Shown here one piece after another: positions 1 to 20,248 of a stretch of 64,000 bases of DNA (within the stretch, counting starts at the first letter, position 1; the number at the start of each line of letters is the position of its first letter). The notes beneath the pieces are model-generated. The model did not search any database. It worked only from the letters and a program-made list of their open reading frames with translations, and had not been told where the DNA came from. Location: positions 30,803 to 94,802 of the forward strand of contig JAJZNA010000014.1 of assembly GCA_021848065.1 (NCBI GenBank), given 5' to 3'. The DNA comes from Candidatus Micrarchaeota archaeon. GTDB taxonomy: Archaea > Micrarchaeota > Micrarchaeia > Micrarchaeales > CABMGC01. The position numbers were made by a program, and so were the translations under genes.

Positions 1-1
1 T

Positions 2-160
2 GTTGTTGCCCCCCAGTACAACCCCTGGGTAGTGGACTGGTACGGCCTCGTTGCCGATATAGTCTTCTGGGCGATACTGGTGTGGATTGTGTCATACCTC
101 CTAACCATATCAAAGTCAGGGACTGCGCGTAAACCTGCAAAGAGGAAGTCGAGGCGTTAG
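2..160 (+). CDS. 3' end of a membrane protein gene (partial, runs off the left edge)
   Basis: Open frame from the window edge to TAG at 158-160. The tail ...WYGLVADIVFWAILVWIVSYLLTISKSGTARKPAKRKSRR is a hydrophobic helix followed by a basic tail. Too short for the ORF track. Confidence 0.3.
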   Translation, partial: VVAPQYNPWVVDWYGLVADIVFWAILVWIVSYLLTISKSGTARKPAKRKSRR

Positions 161-179
161 CGCTTCAGGGGCCTAAGAG

Positions 180-1082
180 TCACCGGCGCAAAGTCTTCGA
201 TGCGAATGACGATACTGCTTCTGCGACATCGGCCTCTGTGCCCTCGAACGAGTGCCCCGCCCCTTCTATCTCAGCGGCAGAGAATGAGACAGATCTGGAT
301 TTGACACGCAATATATCCAAGTACTTTTTCACAGGCATCAGCCTGAACTCTTCCTCAGTGCCGAATACTGCGAGTATCGGCGCCTTCACCTTACTGAACT
401 CGGCAAGCCTGCCCTCATAATCAAATATGCGTGCCTCAACCCTCTTCGGATCTATAACCGAGTCATATCTCTGCGCAGACATTCCGCGTGCGTAGGAAAG
501 TAAAGTATCTCCCTTCCGTTTCCTCATCATTCCCCTGCACTCTGCCAGTGACTTGGCGTACTTCTTGCCAAGGCTGCGCCTGTTCAGGTTATAGTCGTCG
601 CATGGGGCGAGAAGCGCCAGGCCCATTACTGCCCTGTCGCGCTTCCTGTACTGGTAATATGTCACCTTCTGGCATCCGGTGCTGTGGCCGCATAGAACAA
701 ACCTCTCAAATCCCATCCTACGCAGGCACCGTATGGCCCCCGAGATGTCATTGACGCTGTCTTCGAAGCGTTCAAAGTTTACTCCTATGCGCACCCTCTT
801 TCTCCTCCTTCCGGAGAACTTCCATGCAGAGGCTTCGCTGTCATGACCTCTGTTGTTGAAGGTGAAAAGCGCAGCCTTATTTCCAATGGCTTCGGCAATG
901 GCCATGGTTAGTCCGCTGATCATGCTGCCACCCATCCCGTGCAAGTAAACGATGCAGGTATCCGAAGCCTTAGACTCCCTGAAGAGTATCCCATCCAGCC
1001 TTACTCCGTCATCTGCAATAAACCTTACCGCCTTGCCGCATGTGCCAGTGCCAACCACGCGGTCGGGCAATCCAGAACGCAT
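180..1082 (-). CDS. alpha/beta-fold hydrolase
   Basis: 300-aa ORF with an HGMGG oxyanion-type motif and a nucleophile elbow GHSTG (G-x-S-x-G), at typical alpha/beta hydrolase spacing. Confidence 0.6.
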   Translation of the reverse strand: MRSGLPDRVVGTGTCGKAVRFIADDGVRLDGILFRESKASDTCIVYLHGMGGSMISGLTMAIAEAIGNKAALFTFNNRGHDSEASAWKFSGRRRKRVRIGVNFERFEDSVNDISGAIRCLRRMGFERFVLCGHSTGCQKVTYYQYRKRDRAVMGLALLAPCDDYNLNRRSLGKKYAKSLAECRGMMRKRKGDTLLSYARGMSAQRYDSVIDPKRVEARIFDYEGRLAEFSKVKAPILAVFGTEEEFRLMPVKKYLDILRVKSRSVSFSAAEIEGAGHSFEGTEADVAEAVSSFASKTLRR

Positions 1083-1118
1083 ATATAAATAATATGCAGC
1101 AAGACTTATTTACTAATA

Positions 1119-1193
1119 TGGGGCCTGTAACTCAGCTTGGCTAGAGTGGAAGGCTTTTAACCTTTAAGTCGAGGGTTCAAATCCCTCCAGGCC
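1119..1193 (+). tRNA. tRNA-Lys (anticodon UUU)
   Basis: Hand-folded cloverleaf. Acceptor GGGCCTG/CAGGCCC, D stem ACTC/GAGT, anticodon stem GAAGG/CCTTT with loop CTTTTAA, T arm GAGGG-TTCAAAT-CCCTC, discriminator G. Confidence 0.9.
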
Positions 1194-1212
1194 CGCTTCT
1201 GAAGGTAAAAAA

Positions 1213-2760
1213 ATGGAGAAAAAGTCAAAAGAGGAAATGAAGGGAAAGCACTGGATAGATGTCCTGCTTGACCAGCTTGTAGCGCAAAAGCAGCCGCCAT
1301 ACGTGATAACAGGCGGCATGACTACGAGCGGTCCGGCTCACTTCGGCACTATCTGCGAATTCATGTATCCTGCAGTGATAGAGGAGTCCCTCAAGCTAAG
1401 GGGCAAGGCAACAAAGTTCTATTTCTTCGGGGACATACTCGATGCCTTTGACGGTATACCTTTCGAGCTTCAGAAATATGCAGGCGAGCTCACCCCGGAA
1501 CTTGGAAAGCCCCTTGTCTACACAAAGGACGTCATGGGGTGCCACAGGTCTTATGGCGAGCACTACCTCGACCAGGCAAAGAAGCTCATGGCATGGCTAT
1601 CCCTGGAGATAGACGTGATACCTGCGAACGAGCTGTATGATACAGGCAAGATGGACACGTATGCGACTTTGTTCCTCAAGGAGGAGGACAAGGTAAAGGA
1701 GGTTGTGGCACGCACCTCCATGAAGAAGGTAGAGGACATGAAGGGCTGGAGCCCCATAATGCCTATCTGCGAGAAGTGCGGAAAGATAGCCACGACCGTG
1801 GTGACAGCGCACACCGATACCGAGTACGAGTACACCTGCAGCAAGGATGTAAAGTACACCAAGGGATGCGACTTCAAGGGCAAGGCAAAGCTATCTGACC
1901 ACAGGTACAAGCTGCAGTGGAGACTCCACTGGCCCGCATGGCAGGCGCTTTTCGATTCACGCATAGAAGGCAGCGGAATAGACCACATGACAAAGGGGGG
2001 AAGCGCAAACACTGCCGAGGCCATACACCGTGAGATACTGAAAAGGGAGCCGCCCATACTGTTCAAGTACGGATTCATACTTATCAACGGCAAGAAGTAT
2101 TCCAAGTCAAAGGGAATAGGCATGAGCGCGGCAGACCTCAGCAAGCTCATACCCCCAGAGCTGCTAAAGTACGCGCTTATAGAGCCCGACGTGCAGAGCA
2201 ACAAGGACATAGACCCTACTGGCGATAAGCTCATACTGCTATACGAGACAGTCGAGAAGACCGGCCGCCTATCCGAGCCAGAGTCCAGGGCCGATGAGAA
2301 GAGGATGGCTGCATTCCGGGTGGCCGTGAAAAAGCTCCCGTGGAAGTCATCCTTCGTAGACATTCTGCTCAATTACCAGATATACCGCGACTGGAATAAG
2401 GTCGCCGAGATCGTGAAGGATCCCGAAGGCGTAAAGTACCTCTCCCCATACATCTCCGAGTGGCTGGCAAAGGGATATGCCCCCGAGAGATACAATTTCA
2501 CCATAAAGCAGACAAAGGTGAAGACGTGCATCGCCGAGGTAAGGGCCTTCGCATCAAAGCTCAAGCCCGAGATGACAGACCTGGATGTGCATAACCTTGT
2601 ATACCAGACCGCGAGCGACACAAATCTTGATCCAAACGCCCTTTTCGCTGCATTGTACACTGCCCTGATAGGGAAGGAAAAAGGGCCAAGGATGGGCAAG
2701 CTGGTAGCCGCGCTGGGGCTGGAGAGGGTAAAGTCGATACTTTCATATGCAACAAGCTGA
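1213..2760 (+). CDS. lysK: class I lysyl-tRNA synthetase
   Basis: 515 aa. HIGH-type motif (GPAHFGT) near the N-terminus and KMSKS-type motif (KYSKSKG). Overall length and layout match archaeal class I LysRS. Confidence 0.85.
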   Translation: MEKKSKEEMKGKHWIDVLLDQLVAQKQPPYVITGGMTTSGPAHFGTICEFMYPAVIEESLKLRGKATKFYFFGDILDAFDGIPFELQKYAGELTPELGKPLVYTKDVMGCHRSYGEHYLDQAKKLMAWLSLEIDVIPANELYDTGKMDTYATLFLKEEDKVKEVVARTSMKKVEDMKGWSPIMPICEKCGKIATTVVTAHTDTEYEYTCSKDVKYTKGCDFKGKAKLSDHRYKLQWRLHWPAWQALFDSRIEGSGIDHMTKGGSANTAEAIHREILKREPPILFKYGFILINGKKYSKSKGIGMSAADLSKLIPPELLKYALIEPDVQSNKDIDPTGDKLILLYETVEKTGRLSEPESRADEKRMAAFRVAVKKLPWKSSFVDILLNYQIYRDWNKVAEIVKDPEGVKYLSPYISEWLAKGYAPERYNFTIKQTKVKTCIAEVRAFASKLKPEMTDLDVHNLVYQTASDTNLDPNALFAALYTALIGKEKGPRMGKLVAALGLERVKSILSYATS

Positions 2761-2818
2761 CTCTGGCTTTGTGCCGCTAAGAACTATCAGGCATTCACTG
2801 CCTTCATGCATGCACTTC

Positions 2819-3472
2819 TCAACAACCGGCATTTTCGAGCATAGACACTACCATCACCGAATCGCCCCTATTTCTGTCAAGGCCGAGCCTCAAAAATATC
2901 TCCCTCGTCCTTGCGTCTACCGAATCAAGGCGGTCTATGCCGTTTATGGCCTTCCCATAAGTGCCTCGGCCCACCATGGTCCTGGGGTCGTAGTCTTCCT
3001 GCCCAAGCATCTCTGCGATAGCTGCCCCAGCCATCACTGCTTCATGCGCAGGTTCCGCGTCCAGCTCTGGAAATACCCTTCCAAGGCCGCCTCTTAAGAC
3101 AACATTGCGCACTGCAGCCATCATCGCAGGGTTCTGCGTTCTCAGCACCATTGCATAAGGTGTCGTCTCCTCAATTGCGCTGCGCGCAGATAGGGAGAAG
3201 AACCCTTTACCTTGTTTGTTTACATCCAGCACAGTGCCTCCAAGATACAGTATCCCTGACTTACCTCCAAATGTTGCAGTAATAGCCATGGTATACGCTG
3301 CGAATCCTATCAGCCCGCTCTGGTCTGTCATGAGGTGCAGCATGTCCGTGCCCTGTACATGGTCCTTCACATCGTCCGGATCCATCTCGCTGCCGAATCC
3401 GCGCACGGATATCTGCACAAGGGCATCTAGTACGTCGTTACCAAGCCTTCCCGGTTCGCTAACCCTATACAC
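2819..3472 (-). CDS. GNAT-like acetyltransferase-fold protein (weak)
   Basis: 217-aa ORF opening with GTG. It has a Q/R-x-x-G-x-G/A-like segment (KQGKGFF) after a beta-strand-rich region. No stronger signature found. Confidence 0.4.
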   Translation of the reverse strand: MYRVSEPGRLGNDVLDALVQISVRGFGSEMDPDDVKDHVQGTDMLHLMTDQSGLIGFAAYTMAITATFGGKSGILYLGGTVLDVNKQGKGFFSLSARSAIEETTPYAMVLRTQNPAMMAAVRNVVLRGGLGRVFPELDAEPAHEAVMAGAAIAEMLGQEDYDPRTMVGRGTYGKAINGIDRLDSVDARTREIFLRLGLDRNRGDSVMVVSMLENAGC

Positions 3473-3589
3473 TCTTGCTCCGGATCTCTCCCTAACGAGC
3501 TCAGCGAGCTCTGCTATTCGCGTCTCTGCAACTGTCTTGCCACCGTATATGCATTCCTCCTACCATATTCTCACCAATTAGCACAAATT

Positions 3590-3627
3590 CATGATACCTG
3601 AAATATTTCATGATACCTGAAATATTT
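3590..3627. repeat. perfect tandem duplication, 2 x 19 bp (catgatacctgaaatattt)
   Basis: Units at 3590-3608 and 3609-3627 are identical, in the intergenic region upstream of the 2819-3472 gene. Confidence 0.85.
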
Positions 3628-3772
3628 CCGTCCACTAGAAAAGTAGCTGCGTAGACTAACGTCAGGCGCCCATCCTGCCCGAATTCCCTACTGCATGTGT
3701 CCATTGGAACGGCATCACATCAACTTCAATGTCTCTGGGTATCCATGATATATATGCCTTTCCTGCAACTCG

Positions 3773-3781
3773 GCTTTGCTC
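3773..3781. repeat. left copy of 9-bp target-site duplication (ctgcaactc)
   Basis: Identical 9-mer at 8501-8509. Each copy directly abuts a terminal inverted repeat. Confidence 0.7.
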
Positions 3782-3912
3782 ATAAATACTACTCATAAAT
3801 TGAATATATGAGCATATATGGCAATTTGTGAGCAGGCATTAAGGGCAAAGGCAGAATACCTTTTAATACCTTGCTAAACCAGTAATATTGTAAGCTATTT
3901 GCATAGCTTATC

Positions 3913-4302
3913 TTGTGTTGGTATGGCAACAATAAGACATGGGATAAAGTTTATAGGATTTTCCCTTCCATATATACTACCTGCCCAATCATTTATTCGG
4001 TGCTTAATTTGAAGTTGACTATTGAACCAGTTAGTGCTAAGAAGAGGATAATTACAGAAGGTATTGATTTAGAAGCCTTTGATTGGAAAAAACTACAAGA
4101 AATGTTGAAGAAAGAAAAAATCACCTCTGAATTAATCTTGTCTATAATGCTTGTTAAATCGGATAGTGGGAAGCCAATTCCAATTCAATTTAGTTATCAA
4201 AGCTCTAAAGATAAAGAGCAGAAAAAACTGACCATACTATTATCGGAAGACTGTGATGAAGATGTTACTGCCAAGTTAGCAGGGGCATTAGAAAAAATGT
4301 GA
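3913..4302 (+). CDS. hypothetical protein (transposon cargo)
   Basis: 129-aa ORF opening with TTG. Lys/Glu-rich with no recognisable motif. The true start is uncertain. Confidence 0.3.
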   Translation: MCWYGNNKTWDKVYRIFPSIYTTCPIIYSVLNLKLTIEPVSAKKRIITEGIDLEAFDWKKLQEMLKKEKITSELILSIMLVKSDSGKPIPIQFSYQSSKDKEQKKLTILLSEDCDEDVTAKLAGALEKM

Positions 4303-4306
4303 TTAT

Positions 4307-4639
4307 ATGCCTAAAATAGAATACACAGAAGAAGATTTGCAGCGCATTGTTGATTCAGCGATAACACAGAACACTACGATAAAGCATATGGATTCTAATA
4401 TAGTTTATCTTGTCGAGTATAAAAAGTCAGTTGAAAGTTCCTTTATCATATCTATTATAGCTGGATTTTTAGCATCTGCTGGTTTAACGTATGCTCTAAT
4501 AAATCATGACGTAAACTTGCTATTCTTATCAACTGCACTATTAGCACCAGCAATAGTAGCACTATATAGAGCATATAGTGAATTCAGGTCAATTTCTTTG
4601 AACGGAGGAGTATTTAATGCCAACAACCTCAAGGTTTAG
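4307..4639 (+). CDS. small membrane protein (transposon cargo)
   Basis: 110 aa with two hydrophobic helices (SFIISIIAGFLASAGLTYALI, LLFLSTALLAPAIVALY). Starts 5 nt after the previous ORF. Confidence 0.4.
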   Translation: MPKIEYTEEDLQRIVDSAITQNTTIKHMDSNIVYLVEYKKSVESSFIISIIAGFLASAGLTYALINHDVNLLFLSTALLAPAIVALYRAYSEFRSISLNGGVFNANNLKV

Positions 4640-4892
4640 TGCTGATTGGTTTTTAGGCTTATTGAGGGGGCTTTTCAACATAATTAATGACCATATATTG
4701 AAAGCAGAATACAAATCTGATGCTGGCAAAATTAACATAGCAGTTGTAGTATTAGGTTTTGCAGGGATATTTTTTGTTGGATTAAAAGTTGACTATTGGT
4801 TTTTTGGTTCTTTAGCGTGTGTTTTATTTTGTACTATGGCAAGAACAGAACACGTTGATAATAACGGCAAAAGGCGCATAATTAATACCTAA
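4617..4892 (+). CDS. small membrane protein (transposon cargo)
   Basis: 91 aa with hydrophobic helices (INIAVVVLGFAGIFFVGL, FFGSLACVLFC). Overlaps the previous ORF. Confidence 0.35.
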   Translation: MPTTSRFSADWFLGLLRGLFNIINDHILKAEYKSDAGKINIAVVVLGFAGIFFVGLKVDYWFFGSLACVLFCTMARTEHVDNNGKRRIINT

Positions 4893-6109
4893 GCACTTAA
4901 TGTGATTAAGTTAACCGCTATTCCTAATTCATAAATAGAACCTATCAATACGGTAATGTTATAAGCTATTAGTTTACATAGAAGCTCATTTGTCTGCGAT
5001 ACTAAGTTCTTGTTCTTTAAGCAGTCTCCAAACTTCATCTTGATAGCCATATTCGTAGTTTCTACGTTACTCCTCTTGTGGTAATGCTCCATAAACTCAT
5101 CTCTACACATCTGATAATAGTAGAACATTTTGTTCCATACTCTACCTCCGTGAGAATGTTGGCTTGCATTACTCTTGAAAGGTATGTATGCTATGCCTCC
5201 GTTCTCAGCAATAGCATCAAGGTTGGCTCTTGACGAGTAAGCCTTATCCGCACTTACCTCTTGCATATTGAAGCCAAGATTACGAGTAGCATCAGTAAGA
5301 GGTATGAACTTGGGGCTATCTGCTCCATTCTCATCAGTTATCTCAACGGCACTAACGATATTGGTCTTTACTCCAACGCATAGGTGAGCCTTTATCCAGC
5401 TATGTTCTCTTTTGGTATTATGCTTCTCCTTGCAGTATTGAGTGAACTGAGTAGTTCTAAAACCTGTGCTATCTACTGCGAATTGGCTCTCTACTGACTT
5501 GAGAGGCATAGCTGTAATCTGCAATAGCCTATACAATATTGGTCTTATCTCTGCATCATTCAAGAGTATGTTTATTACGTTGTAGTTAGGTGCTTTGCTT
5601 ATCTGTTGCTTCTTCACATCTTCAAGATACAGTGAGTATGCCCGTCTGCTTGATTGCATACTGTAAACCTTCTCTATTGCGCAGAATAGGGCTTCTTTTA
5701 GCGGAACTCTCGGTCTCCCTGCTCCTATTCGTATAGGCTCTTCTACGTTCTCTACCAAGTCCTTTAGAAGCTCCCTGAATAGCTTGCCTTCTTGATTCTG
5801 AGCCAAAGTGTAGTTATGCCAATCCTGAACATAAACCTTTTTTGTCTCGGTAATGGTTACGTTGCCCTTGCTGTCTATGGTCTTTGAGACGGTTATCTCA
5901 ACTGCGAAAATATGTTTGCATTTCATCTGTCTTTCAGTATTATCTGGGCAAGTGCATTTTGACGCTCCAAGACCTAATACTACTTCATAGTATCTATTGC
6001 TACTCTGTGAAGGCACTATCCATTTCCTGCCTTCCATCTTTACCCTGCCCAACTTCGCTATTTCTTGACCTTTTTGTCTCCTTATTTGTATTTGTTTTTG
6101 TAGTTCCAT
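4889..6109 (-). CDS. IS4/IS5-superfamily DDE transposase with N-terminal SWIM-type zinc finger
   Basis: 406 aa. C-x-C-x9-C-x-H (CTCPDNTERQMKCKH) is a SWIM signature. DDE candidates are AVDSTGF, SADKAYSS and RSNVETTNMAIKMKFG (DDE_Tnp_1-like). Confidence 0.75.
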   Translation of the reverse strand: MELQKQIQIRRQKGQEIAKLGRVKMEGRKWIVPSQSSNRYYEVVLGLGASKCTCPDNTERQMKCKHIFAVEITVSKTIDSKGNVTITETKKVYVQDWHNYTLAQNQEGKLFRELLKDLVENVEEPIRIGAGRPRVPLKEALFCAIEKVYSMQSSRRAYSLYLEDVKKQQISKAPNYNVINILLNDAEIRPILYRLLQITAMPLKSVESQFAVDSTGFRTTQFTQYCKEKHNTKREHSWIKAHLCVGVKTNIVSAVEITDENGADSPKFIPLTDATRNLGFNMQEVSADKAYSSRANLDAIAENGGIAYIPFKSNASQHSHGGRVWNKMFYYYQMCRDEFMEHYHKRSNVETTNMAIKMKFGDCLKNKNLVSQTNELLCKLIAYNITVLIGSIYELGIAVNLITLSA

Positions 6110-6142
6110 ACAATCACGTTCCTCTACATATACTATATACTT

Positions 6143-6160
6143 ATAGGTATATATACCTAT
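6143..6160. repeat. perfect 18-bp palindrome ATAGGTATATATACCTAT
   Basis: Self-complementary. Lies 34 nt upstream of the transposase start, in the divergent region shared with the zinc-ribbon ORF. Confidence 0.85.
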
Positions 6161-6278
6161 CAGTATAGTCTACTGATTCTCATGACTTACAGGAAGGTTT
6201 ATATACCTTAAAGGGATTACTATAAAGGATACTTATAAAGGATGTATCAACGAAAAGGATATAAAGAGTGGTTTTGAA

Positions 6279-6467
6279 ATGTCTAATATGGTAAAGTGTC
6301 CTCACTGCGGATTTGTATTTCATAATGAATTACAATGCACACGTTGCGGGCATAAATGGACTCCAAGAACAGATGAATTGCCAACAGTATGTCCTAATCC
6401 TAAATGCAAAAGTCCATATTGGAATAAACCAAGAATAAAGGGCAAAAATGGGAAGGCGAAGAAATGA
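6279..6467 (+). CDS. double zinc-ribbon small protein
   Basis: 62 aa with CPHCG...CTRCGHKW...CPNPKCKSPYW (four Cys pairs) and a Lys-rich tail. Sits just upstream of the methyltransferase. Confidence 0.55.
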   Translation: MSNMVKCPHCGFVFHNELQCTRCGHKWTPRTDELPTVCPNPKCKSPYWNKPRIKGKNGKAKK

Positions 6468-6603
6468 TGGAAAGCTATATAATTTTTAACTGCATTAACT
6501 CTATTACTAAAGTTGCGGATAAGCTTCGCCATACAAATAGCTTCTGTTTCTCAGGTGATGGAAGATTTTTGTTAGCCTTAGCTTTGAGCAAATTGGTGTT
6601 ATT

Positions 6604-7536
6604 ATGAGTAAAAAAGATTCTGATTCAATACCTTTCGTGAACAAAGTCGTTCAAGGAGACTGCATAGAAATCATGCAGAAACTCCCTGCGAAATCAATAA
6701 ATTTAACAATAGCAGACCCACCATATTTCAAGACTATAAATGAAGAGTGGGATTTCAAGTGGAGGACGGAGGAGGACTATTTGTGGTGGACGGATAAATG
6801 GATGAAAGAACTTGCAAGAGTGGTAAAAACAAATTCATCATTCTGGCTGTTTGGCTACATCAAAATCCTATCCAAAATATTACCGATAGCGGAGAAGCAC
6901 GGCTTTGTATTTAGACAGCAGATAGTAGTAGATAAGGGCATGAGGTCAATAAGCGGTAGAAAGACAAGCACCTATAAGATGTTCCCGACTACCACAGAGA
7001 GCATATTCTTCTTCATCAAGAATAACCAACCTAATATCAAGAAGTTCCTTAAGGAGAAACAGAATGAAATCGGTCTCACTGCGAAGGATATAAATGAACG
7101 TCTCGGAGTCAAGACTAATGGCGGTGGCGTATGGTCACTATATACTGGAGAGAATATCTTAGCACAGATACCGACAAGAGAGATGTGGGATAAGTTGCAG
7201 GAAGTTCTGAAGTTCAAGATGGATTACTCAGAAGTCAATTTCACATTTAATACACAGATGGGCTTTAGTGACGTGTGGACAGACATAGATTTCTATGAAG
7301 AAGAAAGAGAGCATTCCACACAGAAACCACAGAAGCTAATAGAACGACTTATGCGTGCAAGCTCTAATGAGGGAGATTTAGTGTTAGACCCATTCTTAGG
7401 TAGTGGGACAACGGCAGTAGTCTCCGAAAGGCTCAAGAGGGACTTCATAGGCATTGAGATTGACAAGTCCTATTGCAAGTCAGCAGAGCAACGACTAAAA
7501 AAGGAACGCATGCAGAAATCATTATCTACTGTCTGA
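6604..7536 (+). CDS. beta-class N6-adenine/N4-cytosine DNA methyltransferase (N6_N4_Mtase family)
   Basis: 310 aa. Catalytic motif IV DPPY (IADPPYF) is N-terminal and AdoMet motif I (DPFLGSGTTAVV) is C-terminal, giving the beta-class order. Confidence 0.85.
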   Translation: MSKKDSDSIPFVNKVVQGDCIEIMQKLPAKSINLTIADPPYFKTINEEWDFKWRTEEDYLWWTDKWMKELARVVKTNSSFWLFGYIKILSKILPIAEKHGFVFRQQIVVDKGMRSISGRKTSTYKMFPTTTESIFFFIKNNQPNIKKFLKEKQNEIGLTAKDINERLGVKTNGGGVWSLYTGENILAQIPTREMWDKLQEVLKFKMDYSEVNFTFNTQMGFSDVWTDIDFYEEEREHSTQKPQKLIERLMRASSNEGDLVLDPFLGSGTTAVVSERLKRDFIGIEIDKSYCKSAEQRLKKERMQKSLSTV

Positions 7537-8401
7537 TGTATTTCTCCTTATATTTCTTGAGAATCTTCTTTCGCATGGTAAGTTTGCTGAAGTCCTTGTC
7601 TGGTATTATTGGATGAACCTTTACTATCTCTGCTTTGCTTAGACCCTTTACCTCATCTCCAAATATCTCAACCAACTTTTCTGTGCTTAATAGATGGGAT
7701 GGCATAGGCTCATCCTTCGGCTTCTTAAGGTTCCAAAAGCTTATCTTGACATCGTGTTCCTGAAGTAACGCCTCAAATATCAGTTGTGGTTGCATCATCA
7801 TAAAATCATATTTAAGCGGATGGAGATTGCATGGTGCGGGCTTCTCGTTTTTTGATGTCTTGAGCTTGAAGTTGTTTTCATAATAATCAGTGAAGAACCC
7901 TCTAACATAGCTCTGCTTCGGACTTACTGTCCATGCTCTAATCCTGACATCAGTCTTATCCATGTCTGGTTTGTCAAAAAGAATGAATATTATTCGTGGA
8001 ACCTTGTTAAGCAGCAAATTCAACTCGTCGTCAGACCTTATTGGGAATATCCAGTGAGAGCTTGTGTCCTTCCTTATGTCATCTGAACCACAAAGAGGAC
8101 AGACTTTCTGCCACTCCAAGACATTAGCTCCACAATTGCCACAGGATTGTAGCTGGTCTGCTCTACTGCAAGACTTGACTTCTGAACTGTCAGCCAAGTC
8201 ATCTCCTCTGGCTGCACTCCCCTTTCCCTTTACTTTGGTGATAAGAGATGCAAGATGCTGACTTGGATATGCAAACTTGCCCTGAGCAGTCTGATTGGTT
8301 ATTTTAGACCACTTGACTATTGCCTTCTTAGGATTTATGTAAAGGTCAAGAATACACTCCTTTATCATAGCTTCGTCTGAAGCAAGCCCAACATCCGCCA
8401 T
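7526..8401 (-). CDS. putative type II restriction endonuclease (partner of the methyltransferase)
   Basis: 291 aa, convergent with and overlapping the MTase 3' end by 11 nt. Candidate PD-(D/E)xK core (GDDL...SEVKS) is followed by an inserted zinc ribbon (CGNCG...CPLCG). The assignment rests on context plus this motif only. Confidence 0.45.
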   Translation of the reverse strand: MADVGLASDEAMIKECILDLYINPKKAIVKWSKITNQTAQGKFAYPSQHLASLITKVKGKGSAARGDDLADSSEVKSCSRADQLQSCGNCGANVLEWQKVCPLCGSDDIRKDTSSHWIFPIRSDDELNLLLNKVPRIIFILFDKPDMDKTDVRIRAWTVSPKQSYVRGFFTDYYENNFKLKTSKNEKPAPCNLHPLKYDFMMMQPQLIFEALLQEHDVKISFWNLKKPKDEPMPSHLLSTEKLVEIFGDEVKGLSKAEIVKVHPIIPDKDFSKLTMRKKILKKYKEKYIRQ

Positions 8402-8500
8402 ATTATAAAATCAGATGAAAAAGGATAAAAACCCAGTCTGAAGTGAATTTATTAGCAAGATAGCGAATTTATTAGCAGAAAGGGATAAATTAGCAAAGCC

Positions 8501-8509
8501 CTGCAACTC
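8501..8509. repeat. right copy of 9-bp target-site duplication (ctgcaactc)
   Basis: Identical to 3773-3781 and abuts the right terminal inverted repeat. Confidence 0.7.
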
Positions 8510-8523
8510 TTCTTGCAGGCGCT

Positions 8524-9000
8524 TTGAACATGGCAATATCTATCCGGAAGGGAACCGAGAATGATTTCGACGCGCTGATGGGCCTGATAAAGGACCTGGC
8601 AGTATTCGAGAAGTCTCCGGACGCCGTCAGGAATTCGCCAGAGCTCATGAAGCTCGATAAGGACCTCTTCGGATTCTTTGTCGCAGAAGATGGCGGCAGG
8701 ATCGTAGGATATGCCCTTTATTTCTTCGCGTACTTCTCATGGGTCGGAAAGAGCCTGTATCTTGAGGATATCTATGTCGCTCCGGAGCACAGGGGCAGGA
8801 AGGTGGGATACCTGCTTATGAAAAGGGTTGTGGAGCTTGCGAAGTCTGAAGGGTGCCGCAGGATGAGGTGGCAGGTCCTTTCATGGAATGAAAAGGCAAT
8901 ACGTTTCTACAAGCGCTGCGGTGCAGAAGTAGATGATGAATGGCTGAACTGCACTCTTGATGAAGCAGGTATAGCCGGATTCCTAAAATCAAAGACGTGA
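8524..9000 (+). CDS. GNAT family N-acetyltransferase (diamine/SSAT-like)
   Basis: 158 aa. Acetyl-CoA motif A (RGRKVGYLLM) and a C-terminal WNEKAIRFYKRCGA motif typical of GNATs. Confidence 0.8.
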   Translation: MNMAISIRKGTENDFDALMGLIKDLAVFEKSPDAVRNSPELMKLDKDLFGFFVAEDGGRIVGYALYFFAYFSWVGKSLYLEDIYVAPEHRGRKVGYLLMKRVVELAKSEGCRRMRWQVLSWNEKAIRFYKRCGAEVDDEWLNCTLDEAGIAGFLKSKT

Positions 9001-9054
9001 ATATACACCAAGGCAATTCCAGACATACTCATATCCCAACAAGCGCCATATGCC

Positions 9055-9873
9055 CTAGAGCCTTGAATACTTCATTGGCTTGGTCTTCTTTGCCACAATT
9101 CCATAAGCCACAGACGTACAGGCCTGCCACCACGACGCGCATATGTCCGCGAATATGAACGTAAGCACTGCAAGGTAGGGCATCAGGGCTGTGCCGCTGA
9201 AAAATGCGTCCAGTGGCACAAGGGCTATGAGCGGAAGATATGACACGATGTTGGCAGCCAGCATGGCCATCGACTGGCCGCTGAGGAACATCCAGCTGTT
9301 GTTCATCGCAGTGCTCCTCCCGTACTTCTTTCCGCCTGCCATCTGCACCGAGATTGACGAATCCAGGTTTGCTATATGCAGCAGGAATGCCACCGCCAGA
9401 AGCACAATGAACGTTATGGCCGAAAGCAACGTGAAGCCCGCAGCATCCCTAAATGCCAGGGCTATAAGGGCCACGTACGAAGCCGCAACAAGCGGCTCGG
9501 CATATGCCAGCGACATTATCATAGAATCGACTACCCCCGGCGCCTCCATGCCCGAGAGCCTTGCCTTTGCGAGCGAAGATAAGGGCGCAGCGATAAGTAT
9601 TCCAAATGCGAAAAATGCAGACGCATAAAAAATGAACGTAGCAGCGGAAGCCGTGCCAAATGCCGCAAGCGCGTAAAGCGCAAATGCTGCGCTTCCTGGC
9701 ATATTCAATGCCAATGCCGAGGGCCTTGATGCGAGCAGGCCCAAGGAGTGCCCTATCATATCCTTTTCAGATATCTCCGGAGCTACCTTATGCGTGCCAC
9801 CGAACTCGCCCTCCTTGTCTTCGCTGAATGTATGGGCCCTAAGTTTCTCACGCTCAGATTGGCTTATGGGCAT
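9055..9873 (-). CDS. polytopic membrane protein, unknown function
   Basis: 272 aa with at least six hydrophobic helices. Immediately downstream of the YbjQ-like gene on the same strand. Confidence 0.5.
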   Translation of the reverse strand: MPISQSEREKLRAHTFSEDKEGEFGGTHKVAPEISEKDMIGHSLGLLASRPSALALNMPGSAAFALYALAAFGTASAATFIFYASAFFAFGILIAAPLSSLAKARLSGMEAPGVVDSMIMSLAYAEPLVAASYVALIALAFRDAAGFTLLSAITFIVLLAVAFLLHIANLDSSISVQMAGGKKYGRSTAMNNSWMFLSGQSMAMLAANIVSYLPLIALVPLDAFFSGTALMPYLAVLTFIFADICASWWQACTSVAYGIVAKKTKPMKYSRL

Positions 9874-9878
9874 CGAAT

Positions 9879-10259
9879 CTACTTGTCAACAGGTAGTACT
9901 ACTGTGGGCTTGCTGCCAGAAGTGCTCTTAGTCCCCACGTACTTTATCGCCGTGCCTATGGCTGTTATCTCCATCCAGCTGCCCATCGGTATTACATTGA
10001 GCTTGACTTCCACTACCCCGTCTGCCCCCAGCTTCTCAGCCTCCTCCTTCATCCTTCCAAGTGCAAGCTCCCTAGCATTGTAAAGCAATTCCGTTATCTG
10101 TGGTACCTCTCCCTTGGTCATGCCCTTCATCGCGCTTCCAATGCCTCCTGTCACTCCCATGCTGTAAACCGAGTTGCCTACCACCAGCCCTACTGGCATG
10201 TACCCCCTGTCCAGTAGCATCCAGAAATCCGATGTGCTCAGATCGCTTGTAAATACCAT
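9879..10259 (-). CDS. YbjQ/UPF0145 family protein
   Basis: 126 aa. The N-terminal pattern SDFWMLLDRGYMPVGLVVGNSVYSMG... and the Gly-rich middle resemble the UPF0145 (DUF74) family. Confidence 0.6.
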   Translation of the reverse strand: MVFTSDLSTSDFWMLLDRGYMPVGLVVGNSVYSMGVTGGIGSAMKGMTKGEVPQITELLYNARELALGRMKEEAEKLGADGVVEVKLNVIPMGSWMEITAIGTAIKYVGTKSTSGSKPTVVLPVDK

Positions 10260-10319
10260 ATTGATCTTTCTATACTACCTCCTCCCAGATTTAAAAATCA
10301 TATGTTTGCATATATCCAT

Positions 10320-10613
10320 ATGGCCGTCCAGCAGACGCGTAACCCGTTCAGCGGCATCAACAATTTCAGTGGATTCAAGAGCAATGCTAATGGCGCATTT
10401 CTAGCATTCGCGCTCGGCATAATTCTGTTGCTTATTGGCTCGTGGATAATAGGAATAATCCTAATGTACGCCGGATTTAGCATATTCACAAGGTCGGCAA
10501 AATTCGTCGTAAGGCCTCAGCAGAACGTTTCAATGTATGCCGATGAGCAGGACGGCTTTGAGGACACTGCGGCCATTCAGCCTCCATCATTTGCAACCCC
10601 CGGCACATACTGA
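10320..10613 (+). CDS. small membrane protein
   Basis: ORF-track frame 10302-10613. The ATG at 10320 gives MAVQQTRNPF..., with one long hydrophobic hairpin (AFLAFALGIILLLIGSWIIGIILMYAGFSIF). Confidence 0.35.
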   Translation: MAVQQTRNPFSGINNFSGFKSNANGAFLAFALGIILLLIGSWIIGIILMYAGFSIFTRSAKFVVRPQQNVSMYADEQDGFEDTAAIQPPSFATPGTY

Positions 10614-10829
10614 CATGCAGAAATCTCCAGCAGTATCTTATTACATACGGCTTTTACACCGGTTTCATCTACGGGGCGTTGTAAATTTGCAAGCGTGAGG
10701 CAAGTATCATCACATCGACCTTTAATCACGATTCATCCTTCATTGATCCACTTCATCTACTTGCCTTTGGATCAAAGTAATCAGTGCATGCCGTAAAAAG
10801 CTTATAAGCCTGGGTGGTTGTTTCGACCA

Positions 10830-10842
10830 AAAGCCTCCGGCG
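10830..10842. repeat. 13-bp duplicate of the tRNA-Thr 3' end (aaagcctccggcg), att-like
   Basis: Identical to 11521-11533, which covers the discriminator, the 3' acceptor strand and the first T-stem bases of tRNA-Thr. Together they bracket the AT-rich VOC gene. Confidence 0.6.
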
Positions 10843-10938
10843 TGCTTCAAACGTGCCGCAATACAAGCCCTTAAACTGGATATATAATGTTTTTTATCTG
10901 TTTTGGTTTGCAAGGGATTATATATCAAATAACTCAAA

Positions 10939-11358
10939 GTGTTTGATGTAGGTGAATGTGTGCAAACTAAGTCAAAAGACCCACTAGGTCATCTAAAGTT
11001 GTCAGTTAGAGATTTTGGTGCTAGCAGAACATTCTATGCTAGACTATTCGATACGCTCGAATTCAAGCAGATTTCTGATAAGGGGCAGAGTGCTGGTTGG
11101 GTAACTAAGGACGGCTTTGGCATCTGGATAGCACAGGCAGAGATACTGGAACCTAAGCATGTCTTCTCTGCACCTGGTTTCCATCACCTATGTGTGAAAG
11201 CTTCTTCTGAATCACAAGTAGACCAAATTTACGATTTGGTTAAAGGAGAGATACAAATATTTAATCCACCTAAGAAGTATCCTGAATATACTCCTGACTA
11301 TTATGCAGTATTCTTTGCAGATCCAGATGGAATGAAAATAGAAGTTGCCTACTATTAG
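10939..11358 (+). CDS. VOC/glyoxalase-bleomycin resistance family protein
   Basis: 139 aa (GTG start in the track). Paired beta-alpha-beta-beta-beta pattern with HLKLSVRDFGASRTFY... and YAVFFADPDGMKIEV. Confidence 0.7.
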   Translation: MFDVGECVQTKSKDPLGHLKLSVRDFGASRTFYARLFDTLEFKQISDKGQSAGWVTKDGFGIWIAQAEILEPKHVFSAPGFHHLCVKASSESQVDQIYDLVKGEIQIFNPPKKYPEYTPDYYAVFFADPDGMKIEVAYY

Positions 11359-11522
11359 CCTAAGTCAACAGCCTTCATAAGCTTGTAAATATTCAAGTGC
11401 GATCCTTTTTGAGGGCTTTTTATATTTACGAGACACCAATTTCTCTGACCAAACCCAAAATGGGCTCAAAAACCAAAAGGTTTATATAAAAACGATAAGG
11501 GCTTATAACACGCCACACATAA

Positions 11523-11594
11523 AGCCTCCGGCGAGGATTGCACTCGCGACCTCGTCCTTACCAAGGACGCGCTCTACTACTGAGCTACAGAGGC
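11523..11594 (-). tRNA. tRNA-Thr (anticodon GGU)
   Basis: Cloverleaf on the minus strand. Acceptor GCCTCTG/CGGAGGC (one G-U), D stem GCTC/GAGC, anticodon stem CGTCC/GGACG with loop TTGGTAA, T arm GCGAG-TGCAATC-CTCGC. The T loop is unusual. Confidence 0.85.
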
Positions 11595-17363: not shown

Positions 17364-17380
17364 GGAGAAGCAAGCTTGAA
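17364..17380 (+). other. 5' strand of the 23S rRNA processing stem
   Basis: ggagaagcaagcttgaa is the perfect reverse complement of 20296-20312 (ttcaagcttgcttctcc). The pair encloses the whole 23S rRNA. Confidence 0.8.
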
Positions 17381-17382
17381 TA

Positions 17383-20248
17383 TTTTTTAAGCCACCTAGT
17401 GGATGGCTTGGCTCTAATAGCGACGAAGGGCGTGGCAAGCTGCGATAAGCCCAAGGTAGGCGCATGTCAGCCTTTGAACTTGGGATACCCGAAATGTGCA
17501 CTATGAATAGTGGTGCGAGCGTACGCGTGGAATTGAAATATCTTAGTACACGCAGGAAAAGAAAGAGTATTCGATTCCGTTAGTAAAACGATTGAAACCG
17601 GAAGAGGGCGAACCGAATTGTTCATTGCAAAATGAACTAGATGTGGTGCAACTTTTAGTCTTGCGATGCCTGCCGAACGTTCTGGAAAGAACGGCCAAAG
17701 AGAGTGACAGCCTCGTAGGTTAAGCAGAGTGAGATGTGTTGTTTGAGAGTAATCCGGCTTTGGTATGCCGTATGAATACGGGGCATTAAACCCCAACCCT
17801 AAATATTGATTAGAGACCGATAGCGAACAAGTAGCGCGAGCGAAAGCTGAAAAGAACCCACACGTGTGGGGTTGAAATAGATCTGAAACTAGGTGGTTAC
17901 GAGAAGGTAAGGTGTGGAAGGAATGATTGTCCCAGAAGGAATGCTCGAAAGTGCAGGACGATGGGAAGGGACTAATATCTTATCATTCTTCTCGAAGCAA
18001 GAGCCAGGGAGTGCATTGTAGTGGCGAGCTTAATAGCGAAGTGAAAGCGAGAGCGCGCAAGCAATGAGGCGCTGGGCATGAAATATGCCTTAAGTCACTG
18101 CAATTCGACCCGAAGCCGTTGTGATCTACTCGCGGCCAGGACGAAGTCGAGCTTACGCTTGATGGAGGTCCGCAACCTGTCATGGCATGTCCTGTTGGGT
18201 GAGCTGCGGGTAGGGGCGATAGACCACTCGAACACGGCAATAGCGGGTCCCCTCCGAAGTATCTTTAGGATAGCCTTGGGCGAGCTCGAACACGAGGTAG
18301 AGCGACCGATTAGAAAGTATTGCTGCGAAAGCGGCAGCTTTCCCGTCAAACTCCGAATGCGTGTTCTGCGTAGACCCCGAGAGTCGGCGACGTTGGGTAA
18401 GCTAGCGTCACGATGCTGTAAAGACAGTATCCGAGGTTAAGGTCCCCAAATCCTAGTTAAGTGTATCAAAGGGCGGTTTTGTCTTAGACATTCGGGAGGT
18501 AGGCTCAGAAGCAGCCACCCTTTAAAAAACGCGTCATAGCGTACCGATTGAGATAATTCTCCCCGAAGATGGACGGGGCTAAACTAGGTACCGAAACCCC
18601 GGCACTAGAAGATAGTGGGTAGGAGGGCGTGCTGCATGGCTAGAAGTGCATCCTTGCGGATGTGTGGACCGTGCAGCAGTGAAAATCCTGGTATTAGTAA
18701 TAGCATATATGGGTGAGAATCCCATACGCCGGAAGCACAAGGTTTTCCTTGTAATGATTGTCAGCTGGGAGTTAGTCGATCCTAAGCACAGAGCTAATCA
18801 CTCCTGTGCAAAAGGGAAGTCTGTTAATATTCAGACACTTATCGCGTAGGCGTGGCAACACAAGGCGGATTTCTGACGCTTGAGGATAGGTCTGCAAGAA
18901 GATACAAATGGCTGTGGAGTCTCGTTATGAGGGGAAGCAGCTAAATGATTCAATAATGACCAAATTCTTGAGCCCGTGAAAAGGGAATCCGCAACGATCG
19001 TGATAATTCGTACCTAGAACCAGTACAGGTGCTGCTGGCTGAAAAGGCCAAGGCGTGTCAGGAGAACCCGGGTTAGGGAAATCGGCAAAATAGTGGCGTA
19101 TCTTTTGTAAAAGCCATGTCTGCGCTTGGTAAGCGCAGATTTCAATAACAAGGGAACAACGACTGTTTATCAAAAACACAACTCACCGCACAGTCGAAAG
19201 GCTGAGTACAGTGGGTGACGCCTGCTCACCGCTAGTACGCGAAACCCCATTTCAATGGGACAAAGCGCTAGCAAAGAGCGGGAGTAACTCTGACTCTCTT
19301 TAGGTAGCGTAATACCTCGTCACTTAATAGGTGACTTGCATGAAGGGCGTAACGATTGTTCCACTGTCCCAACTCGGGACCTGGTGAACTTACTACGTGG
19401 TGTACATGCCACGTTCTTTCAGTGGGTAGCGAAGTCTCTATGAAACTTGACTATAGCCTGTTGCTGTTGTGTGACAAGTACTGCACAGCGTAAGTGGGAG
19501 CGTCGAAGCGGCGTTTTCGGATGCCGTGGAGCGATAATGTAACACCACTCTGTACCTGTTACGCGACTTACAAGATGATTGGACAACAGCAGGTGGATAG
19601 TTGGACTGGGCGGTTGCTTTCGATAAGGAAACGAAAGTGATCAATGCTCTGCTTAGGAGGGTTGGGAACCCTCTGTGAAGCATAAAGGCAAATGCAGGGC
19701 TGACTGTATATCGAAAAGCGTGATATGCAGACTGGAAACAGTGACTTAACGAACGTTGGATGCCTTTTTAATGGGGCACCAAGCTGTCAGACAAGTTACT
19801 CTAGAGGTAACCGGTTCGTGGCTGGTGAGAGTTCACATCGACCCAGCCGTTTGATACACCGATATGGGCTTAGGTTATCCTGGAGGTGCAGGAGCCTCCA
19901 AGGGTTGGACTGCTCGTCCATTAAAAACCTACATGAGCTGAGTTCAGTACGTCGCGAGACAGTACGGTAGCAACTACTGAAAGTGTTAGTGTCAGAGGAT
20001 AAGAACTTTTTAATACGAGAGGAACGAAAGTTCGGCGCCTCTAGTGGACCGGTTGTCGTAATGGCACTGCCGGGTAGCCACGCGCTAAGCGGATAAGCCC
20101 TGAAAGCATCTAAGGACGAAGCCGTATCCGAAACGAGACACTTAGGGTGGGCATAGTACATGCCTTTGATAGGGCGGGAGTGTAAGCAGGGAGCTTCGGC
20201 GACCTGCGAGCTCACCGCAACTAAATCCTAATAAACTATTAAGAAAAG
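17383..20248 (+). rRNA. rrl: 23S ribosomal RNA (ends approximate, +/- 20 nt)
   Basis: Conserved 23S blocks read directly. These include a 5' ...GTGGATGGCTTGGC...GCGATAAGCC start, a GACCGATAGCGAACAAGTAGCGCGAGCGAAAGCTGAAAAGAACC...GAAATAGATCTGAAAC block, and a 3' GATAGGGCGGGAGTGTAAGC...GAGCTCACCGCAACTAAAT end. Helix 1 pairs 17383-17390 with 20239-20246. Confidence 0.9.

Follow-up and report, generated by a model that had tools for sequence, protein, structure and literature searches.

We analysed a 64,000-nucleotide stretch of a Candidatus Micrarchaeota archaeon genome (GCA_021848065.1, contig JAJZNA010000014.1, positions 30,803 to 94,802), here called the window, which holds at positions 3772-8500 a 4729-bp element with the structure of a transposon and a type II restriction-modification (R-M) gene pair inside it. 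The element contains a SWIM-DDE transposase gene, three small open reading frames (ORFs), two of them predicted to encode membrane proteins, a gene for a zinc-ribbon protein, and convergent methyltransferase and endonuclease genes (Table 1). Profile matches, motifs and hydropathy confirmed this gene list, which had been proposed in a preliminary description of the locus. That description had put the span at 3773-8509; the 4.7-kb element stood, with its left edge corrected by one base and the right-hand target-site duplication (TSD), which had been included, now left outside.

Table 1. Coordinates of the element's features and of the flanking duplications in the window.
Feature	Coordinates	Strand	Remarks
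Left target-site duplication copy	3763..3771	.	CTGCAACTC; single at the L142 empty site
Transposon end downstream of transposase gene	3772..3835	+	terminal inverted repeat GGCTTTGCTCATAAAT
Small acidic ORF, ~97-100 aa	4000..4302	+	maximal ORF start 3913; passenger gene
110-aa ORF, two predicted membrane helices	4307..4639	+	passenger gene
91-aa ORF, predicted membrane helix	4617..4892	+	passenger gene; converges on transposase gene, 4-bp overlap
Transposase, 406 aa	4889..6109	-	Pfam DDE_Tnp_1 and NCBIfam matches
AT-rich divergent control region, 169 bp	6110..6278	.	separates transposase and zinc-ribbon genes
Zinc-ribbon protein, 62 aa	6279..6467	+	two CxxC pairs; C-terminal CPNPKCKSPYWNKPR motif
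Beta-class N6/N4 DNA methyltransferase, 310 aa	6604..7536	+	Pfam N6_N4_Mtase 2.8e-43; PADLOC MTase_II 2.7e-54
MamI-family type II restriction endonuclease, 291 aa	7526..8401	-	Pfam RE_MamI 1.1e-35; PADLOC REase_II 2.2e-35
Transposon end upstream of transposase gene	8441..8500	-	terminal inverted repeat GGCTTTGCTAATTTAT (minus-strand reading)
Right target-site duplication copy	8501..8509	.	CTGCAACTC; single at the L142 empty site

Reading the junctions in the sequence, we found them exactly as they had been described for an intact-looking transposon with 9-bp inverted repeats (IRs) and a 9-bp duplication. On the left, ctgcaactc (3763-3771) abuts GGCTTTGCT (3772-3780), in the context ...gcctttc CTGCAACTC / GGCTTTGCTCATAAAT...; on the right, AGCAAAGCC (8492-8500) abuts ctgcaactc (8501-8509), in the context ...ATAAATTAGCAAAGCC / CTGCAACTC ttcttgc. 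Read inward, both ends are GGCTTTGCT and start with GGCTTTG, and thus with the GGC of IS903-type repeats. The terminal IRs are perfect over 9 bp and match at 13 of 16 positions on extension, and our recomputation returned the value already given. A 9-bp IR abutting a 9-bp direct repeat, at most 10 kb apart in 64 kb, is expected by chance about 0.01 times (6.4e8 position pairs x 4^-18). The GC content drops at both element junctions, to 0.381 inside, compared with 0.517 and 0.478 in the 3-kb flanks and 0.503 in the rest of the window, which bears out the earlier remark that the interior is AT-richer. One transposase gene and one pair of ends make the structure non-composite, as had been claimed. 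We detected no internal insertion sequence (IS)-like repeats in the element that would place the cargo between two IS copies, and no further copies of the element ends above chance elsewhere in the 64-kb window.

The locus could be compared with its uninterrupted form. Following a member of the 90% cluster of the neighbouring GNAT protein, we reached L142 (GCA_964561405.1), a syntenic contig of a sister species. Window 1-3771 aligns to L142 2819-6569 with 89.3% identity, and window 8500-10842 aligns to L142 6560-8899 with 86.0% identity; the two alignments overlap in cctgcaactc only. L142 reads ...gatatatatgcctttc CTGCAACTC ttactgcaggcgctttgaacATG, with one copy of the 9-mer and no element. 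The empty site that the preliminary description had suggested looking for, restoring a single ctgcaactc, was therefore found, and it lacks the whole 4.7 kb. The search for a second copy of the exact element, suggested alongside, gave none.

The transposase matches DDE_Tnp_1 (PF01609) with E = 2.8e-22, and its best NCBIfam model is NF033579 transpos_IS5_2, which covers residues 96-386 only. The N-terminal ~95 residues contain the SWIM signature C52-x-C54...C64-x-H66. Aligning 30 relatives, we found this signature, the residues D213, D288 and E350, and the YREK signature Y343-R346-E350-K357 to be invariant; many transposase relatives also carry precomputed matches to the SWIM family PF04434. Among PDB structures, an AlphaFold model of the protein (pLDDT 80.5) matched retroviral integrases and the transposases of ISCth4, piggyBac and Tn5. 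We searched for IS-like inverted repeats directly around the transposase gene and found none. An IR-like sequence, GCTTTGCTTATCTGTTGCTT, lies at 5592-5611 within the transposase coding sequence and is kept in all close relatives. As a candidate internal end (GCTTTGCTTATCTG) it was rejected, being accounted for by conserved I-S-K-A-P codons; it probably reflects coding constraint, because the sequence corresponds to conserved K-Q-Q-I-S-K-A-P codons.

The methyltransferase carries a DPPY motif at residue 38 and FLGSG at residue 264. Its gene overlaps the convergent endonuclease gene by 11 bp, and the endonuclease contains an inserted CxxC...CxxC zinc ribbon. A methyltransferase with its motifs next to an endonuclease of a known family makes this a type II R-M gene pair, which from its sequence would be predicted to be active as an R-M system. 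The zinc-ribbon gene is divergent from the transposase gene and belongs to the backbone shared with the closest relatives. The control region between the two genes holds a near-perfect palindrome at 6136-6167 (TATACTTATAGGTATATATACCTATCAGTATA), is partly conserved in a decayed relative (L143, below), and may act as a promoter/operator region; the zinc-ribbon protein is a candidate regulator of the divergent promoters. In two of the three small ORFs, hydrophobic stretches of 19 residues exceed 1.6 on the Kyte-Doolittle scale, which fits membrane helices. Neither these three ORFs nor the zinc-ribbon protein had a significant family match in Pfam, NCBIfam, PADLOC or PHROGs, and the element contains no integrase or recombinase gene.

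Evidence that such units move as a whole came from a close relative. The transposase P0001, 90% identical to that of the window, sits in a 5113-bp element whose ends, AGCTTTGCTAATTTATCCC... and GGTTTTGCTAATAAAACC..., resemble those of the window element and whose cargo is a Mrr_cat endonuclease, an N6_N4 methyltransferase and a DUF3800 protein. In L016, L147 and L148 this element lies between rpl15e and TFIIE-alpha with the TSD CCTCGGAAC; in L146 it lies at an unrelated second locus with the TSD GCTTCTATA. Within the element, the L146 copy differs from the others by 2 mismatches in 5113 bp (99.96% identity); beyond its ends the loci show no similarity. The presence of one 5113-bp unit at two loci with different 9-bp TSDs means that whole cargo units of this lineage transpose. 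Together with L142, which lacks the entire window unit, this upholds the earlier claim of a transposon that moves an R-M module as cargo. IRs and a TSD enclosing passenger genes, an empty site, and a sister unit at two loci are the marks of a unit transposon.

Other relatives have different cargo. L018, with an 80% identical transposase, contains a 6458-bp element (TSD TTAAGGGGG) with NurA, HerA (DUF87) and DruA; L145, within the 90% cluster of the transposase, contains an 8163-bp element (TSD ATTCATTCC) with an HNH protein and a type IIG enzyme; and L020, from a Micrarchaeota metagenome-assembled genome (MAG) with a 92% identical transposase, has a type IIG enzyme beside the same zinc-ribbon gene. 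Comparing the DNA of these elements with the window copy (WIN), we observed that the terminal 60 bp upstream of the transposase gene are 97-98% identical among WIN, L016/L146, L020 and L145. The zinc-ribbon/transposase module is about 85% identical among WIN, L016/L146 and L020; in L145 the shared block is reduced to the transposase gene, and a different 59-aa gene replaces the zinc-ribbon gene. Between the shared blocks and downstream of the transposase gene, the four are unrelated. In the closest sub-lineage, the cargo is swapped like a cassette between the 60-bp end and the transposase module. Such exchange could come about when elements in the same genome recombine or when insertions standing in tandem fuse.

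Two further observations concern the fate of such elements and their cargo. A decayed relative lies in another genomic context at L143 2010-4500 (GCA_030043695.1), and also in L144. L143 retains a MamI-like R-M system (86% DNA identity), an intact zinc-ribbon gene (as do L016, L146 and L020), the control region and, of the transposase gene, only some 20 bp from its start. That remnant adjoins a TehB-like gene, into which its ORF runs out of frame, with AdoHcyase beyond; L143 is an immobilised R-M remnant. Separately, the set of NurA, HerA (DUF87), DruA and a ~56-aa gene recurs in L149-L158 and L018, next to transposases 60% and 80% identical to that of the window, and may be a defence module travelling with this transposon family. 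P0045, with 25 contigs, was considered as a multi-copy plain IS and rejected, as it is one locus sampled repeatedly, again with the NurA/HerA/DruA cargo.

We then delimited the wider family. More than 6400 transposase relatives were found at E < 1e-5. Scanning one genome per species, we recorded at least 591 loci and kept the best 80. The boundary finder asked for identical 9-mers outside and an IR match of at least 11/16 inside, with no constraint on sequence. It delimited 54 elements, the window's own counted, all with perfect 9-bp TSDs that differ at every insertion; where a locus had 8 kb or more on each side, 31 of 37 gave an element. All 108 termini fit (G/A)GCTTTGC..., with T5, T6 and G7 invariant, a consensus that the search did not impose. 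The elements measure 2480-13394 bp (median 4742). Among 83 loci there was no plain IS, and every delimited element carries passenger genes. The transposase gene is mostly found towards one end, with a median of 820 bp downstream of it and 2887 bp upstream, so that most cargo is on the upstream side. The archaeal hosts are Micrarchaeota, Aenigmatarchaeota, Woesearchaeota, Diapherotrites/Iainarchaeota, Altiarchaeia, Hadarchaeota, Bathyarchaeia, Methanothrix, Methanoperedens, other methanogens and Thermoplasmata, and the bacterial hosts include Acidobacteriota, Alphaproteobacteria and Dehalococcoidia. Forty transposase relatives are on IMG/VR contigs.

The ends of these elements share an asymmetric repeat architecture. 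The 9-nt terminal core (positions 5-13) occurs 8.6 times per kb in the subterminal 117 nt and 0.33 times per kb in the interiors, a 26-fold enrichment. Direct copies of it mark the end upstream of the transposase gene, at +23 (28 of 54 elements) and +43 (26 of 54), and inverted copies mark the downstream end, at +36 (20 of 54) and +56 (19 of 54). Neither pattern is present at the opposite end. The core sequence varies by clade (TTGCTAATA, TTGCTCCTA, TTGCACGTA, TTGCCCAAT), with the geometry kept. The window element fits this geometry. Its right end has direct core copies at +23 (8470-8478) and +43 (8450-8458), and its left end has inverted copies of the core TTGCTCATA at 3807-3815 (1 mismatch, +36) and 3827-3835 (2 mismatches, +56), besides a partial direct copy at 3789-3797. 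The subterminal motifs of the preliminary description are therefore real, but they are not simply mirrored.

The passengers of the family are mostly R-M or other defence genes. In a Pfam scan of the 140 passenger proteins with 140 aa or more, we found N6_Mtase in 13 proteins (11 also Eco57I, 9 also MmeI-type, i.e. type IIG/IIL), N6_N4_Mtase in 6, Methylase_S in 5, NYN and TaqI_C in 4 each, and DUF488, HNH and HSDR_N in 3 each. EcoRI, C5 and D12 methylases, GmrSD_N, Mrr_cat and DUF3800 were found in 2 proteins each, and DruA, NgoPII, BglI and MamI in 1 each. The PADLOC results agree with those from Pfam, and roughly half of the delimited elements have a DNA methyltransferase. Most elements also have a divergent gene of 50-100 aa directly upstream of the transposase gene. 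These small genes belong to unrelated families whose sequences resemble DNA-binding folds, whatever the cargo: zinc-ribbon in 7 elements including the window's, RHH-like in 5, AbrB-like and others in the rest.

In two Acidobacteriota MAGs, different family elements stand in tandem with the same 9-mer between them (L091 3034-19534 and L096 1247-12500). L091 reads gttggaccg-El-gttggaccg-El-gttggaccg-El-cggtccaac-El, where El is an element; L096 has cagggtcga three times and a ~100-bp end-to-end mini-element. Such pile-ups with one 9-mer indicate repeated insertion beside a resident end, with the duplication precisely re-used, and are a possible route to cargo fusion.

To place the element among known systems, we compared it with IS903. 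Annotated plasmid relatives of the transposase include IS903B, ISAs4, ISAha1 and IS17, at ~25% identity and in the DDE domain only. IS903B (in L100) reads GGCTTTGTTGAATAAATC at both ends, with the same heptamer GGCTTTG as the window element, and makes 9-bp direct repeats (PMC10513040). The shared terminus, the DDE relatives and the 9-bp duplication indicate IS903-like chemistry and terminal recognition. Of the two families to which the 9-bp duplication had been said to fit, IS4 and IS903-type IS5, the ends, the transposase and the best NCBIfam model support the second and not the first. IS903 and IS903B likewise have a DDE_Tnp_1 transposase with the YREK signature, GGCTTTG termini and 9-bp TSDs. 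However, IS903 is 1057 bp long, encodes a single transposase of 307 aa and no passengers, and ends in simple 18-bp IRs, whereas the window element has 4729 bp, six passenger genes, asymmetric subterminal repeat arrays and a 406-aa transposase with an extra ~95-aa N-terminal SWIM domain. Members of the IS903 group in ISfinder are ~0.95-1.15 kb long, with a single transposase ORF of ~300 aa and no passengers. The element departs from the group on four counts, namely size, passenger genes, the added SWIM domain and the NCBIfam cut-off, and the best name for it is transporter IS or unit transposon, descended from the IS903 lineage.

Transporter IS and unit transposons are alike in having one transposase gene, one IR pair, a short TSD and passengers inside the IRs. 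As Siguier et al. and ISfinder/TnCentral reportedly describe them, transporter IS are mostly sporadic members of families that are typically plain IS; here, by contrast, all 54 delimited elements carry cargo, predominantly R-M or defence genes. Tn7-like transposons, which according to Benler et al. 2021 reportedly carry variable cargo rich in defence systems, share the DDE chemistry, differentiated ends with multiple transposase-binding repeats, and variable defence-rich cargo. They differ in having TnsA/B/C with target selectors, 5-bp duplications and att-site homing, where the present family has a single SWIM-DDE protein, varied sites and 9-bp duplications. The differentiated multi-site ends are nonetheless more reminiscent of Tn7 or Mu than of IS903. 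SWIM zinc fingers are said to have been reported by Makarova, Aravind and Koonin in 2002 in eukaryotic Mutator-like elements (MuDR/MULE), which resemble the window element in combining a DDE transposase and a SWIM CxCxnCxH finger with 9-bp TSDs and subterminal repeats. MULE transposases belong to an IS256-like clade and have the finger C-terminal to the catalytic domain; unlike them, the window transposase has an IS5-like catalytic domain and an N-terminal finger. The union of SWIM and IS5-like DDE domains is probably independent of that in MULE. Bacterial R-M units with IRs, an 8-bp target duplication and empty sites were described by Furuta, Abe and Kobayashi in 2010 (PMC2853133). Their set excluded R-M systems linked to mobility genes, and no archaeal case survived selection (PMC2853133). 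Compared with those units, the window unit is autonomous, archaeal and part of a large coherent family.

Taking these results together, we are highly confident that window 3772-8500 is an autonomous, non-composite unit transposon of the IS903-like IS5 branch with R-M cargo. In the mechanism that we propose, the SWIM-DDE transposase would recognise the GGCTTTGC termini and the subterminal repeat arrays, direct at the end upstream of its gene and inverted at the other; the SWIM domain may be the part that binds the repeats. The enzyme would cut the target with a 9-bp stagger and insert the whole 4.7-kb unit, leaving the CTGCAACTC duplication, presumably by a cut-and-paste and not a replicative reaction. 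The R-M module would defend its host from foreign DNA and, through post-segregational killing, stabilise the transposon, thanks to which the module would in turn be mobile both horizontally and within the genome. Across the family at large, what lies between the 60-bp end and the regulator/transposase module is swapped as a cassette.

Several points weigh against this reading. Transposition is deduced here from sequence comparison, and restriction activity is predicted. The transposase misses the NCBIfam IS5 equivalog cut-off (127 against 140 bits), its score for the SWIM family PF04434 is 19.5 bits against a cut-off of 19.6, and the size, the passengers and the SWIM domain depart from the IS903-group definition. 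MamI recognises GATNNNNATC, and avoidance of this site in the window is not detectable (10 observed against 14 expected), a count that says little either way. About 19 contig records contain one or other flanking gene in its exact form; all match the window over the compared stretch, and either have the element at this site or end before or inside it. No second copy or empty-site allele of the exact window element was found. In JGI metagenome contigs, exact-match scans gave no matches to the shared 34-nt end or to the reconstructed empty site, joined as ...gcctttcCTGCAACTCttcttgc... and differing by two bases from that of the sister species (L142).

A very different account would make only the transposase gene mobile, as a plain IS of ~1.3 kb inside a pre-existing R-M island, with the outer 9-bp IRs and direct repeats coincidental. 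IS5-family elements are indeed normally ~1 kb with one gene, and the transposase gene here lies mid-unit and not at an end. We consider this account highly improbable, as no IS-like repeats surround the gene, all 4.7 kb are missing from the empty site, and the outer ends show the consensus and repeat architecture of 53 other elements; in addition, one sister unit occupies two loci in its entirety, and no plain IS turned up among 83 loci. Low GC, defence cargo and the 40 relatives on IMG/VR 'viral' contigs could also suggest a genomic island or a plasmid or virus remnant, integrated by site-specific recombination with the direct repeats as att remnants. Equally little credence attaches to this origin: the unit has no integrase or recombinase gene and is not inserted at a tRNA gene, the repeats have 9 bp and differ at every insertion, and terminal IRs with a DDE transposase account fully for the structure.

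Two narrower alternatives deserve more weight and concern parts of the unit transposon that we favour. The zinc-ribbon protein could be a controller of the R-M genes, analogous to a C protein, instead of a regulator of transposition. Its gene lies upstream of the methyltransferase gene in the same direction, like C genes, and in L143 it stays with the R-M genes after loss of the transposase gene. Elsewhere it travels with the transposase as the cargo changes (Mrr and methyltransferase in L016/L146, type IIG in L020), and the slot upstream of the transposase gene holds unrelated zinc-ribbon, RHH-like or AbrB-like proteins whatever the cargo. We therefore regard control of the R-M genes as possible yet the less favoured role; the two are not mutually exclusive, because the divergent promoters share one control region. 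It is also conceivable, if rather unlikely, that the element inserted once by the proposed mechanism and is now a fixed, quiescent resident, kept by an addictive or useful R-M system. The window copy may be fixed, and possibly quiescent, because every contig extending as far as the insertion site has it there, without sequence differences, and the exact transposase is recorded at this locus only. In relatives, too, a genome seems to have one or a few copies, as the 25 contigs listed for P0045 represent one locus in a sample series, and L143 shows that immobilisation happens. Against quiescence stand a full-length transposase ORF with all family-invariant residues, a perfect duplication and ends that keep the family architecture. 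The sister element with the ~90% identical transposase has moved recently (2-3 mismatches between copies at different loci), and two Logan contigs start inside the right end as if it adjoined more than one flank.

These contigs, L009 and L010, are independent Logan assemblies (k=31) that begin at window 8471, exactly 30 nt (k-1) inside the right end. A start at k-1 is what a de Bruijn graph branch at the 8500/8501 junction would produce, suggesting that in those samples the terminal 30-mer is followed by more than one sequence, through further copies or polymorphism; this is the only hint that the window copy may still move. Contig L014 (GCA_021852005.1) matches the window up to base 3763, where the left duplication begins, and differs in its terminal positions 1-3 (atg for tgc); these bases are noise at the contig end or reflect another junction in that assembly. 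Look-ups of the exact flanking proteins and of the exact transposase were abandoned as a source of empty sites, having returned only 100%-identical contigs that are filled or broken off.

On its own, the window element is a well-defined transposon with R-M cargo, an already known type. The added interest lies in the family, which is consistently cargo-bearing, defence-specialised, structurally distinctive, and widespread in DPANN and other archaea. We give about even chances to the view that it is an undescribed large family of single-protein SWIM-DDE cargo transposons, a dedicated, cassette-swapping vehicle of R-M and defence genes in DPANN archaea, methanogens and some bacteria. In the literature we found no description of a SWIM-DDE IS5-like cargo family or of archaeal R-M transposons; ISfinder was outside that search, and a prior description is possible. 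R-M systems are known to be mobile, but what carries them is seldom identified, and in archaea least often; in the present case the boundaries of the vehicle are known to the base pair, with an empty site and a sister element that moved with its cargo. Krupovic et al. stated in 2019 that cargo-carrying DNA transposons were not detected in archaea (PMC6563490), which the family, if correctly read, would contradict. It would point to a second lineage of defence-carrying DDE transposons besides the Tn7-like ones, prominent in the small-genome DPANN archaea, where routes of gene exchange are poorly understood. A one-protein transposase with ~60-bp ends that mobilises 2.5-13 kb offers a tractable mechanism, and its simplicity a possible starting point for archaeal genetic tools. 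It also raises the question of how multi-site asymmetric ends and a SWIM domain arose in an IS903-like enzyme.

The host is archaeal, as had been assumed for the transposon: an archaeal 23S rRNA gene lies at window 17375-20242, and the best named relatives of the host class I LysRS are all Candidatus Micrarchaeota. The 23S rRNA gene is full length, and no 16S or 5S match occurs elsewhere in the 64-kb window, which indicates that the rRNA genes are unlinked. The element had been placed between two GNAT-like genes. This is right for the right-hand neighbour, a GNAT acetyltransferase (1.3e-24) whose start codon is 21 bp from the insertion; for the left-hand neighbour, a 217-aa protein with no Pfam or PDB sequence match, the assignment was dropped as unsupported.

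Comparing window 8484-8530 with L142 6545-6590, we noticed that the insertion moves a TATA-like gatatatat box 4.7 kb away from the GNAT gene, and that the element-terminal gATAAATTa now stands at an equal distance (~-42) from the GNAT ATG. The element end might thus supply an outward-facing archaeal promoter element for this gene. In L142, the GNAT ORF as drawn by the gene caller (177 aa) reaches upstream over the target site. The intergenic region left of the element has, at window 3588-3625, a perfect tandem duplication of a 19-mer (TTCATGATACCTGAAATAT x2), of which L142 has one diverged copy. A second segment missing from L142, of ~680 bp and GC ~0.40, lies at window 10843-11520; it encodes a 132-aa glyoxalase-family protein and ends 2 bp before a tRNA-Thr gene (11523-11594).

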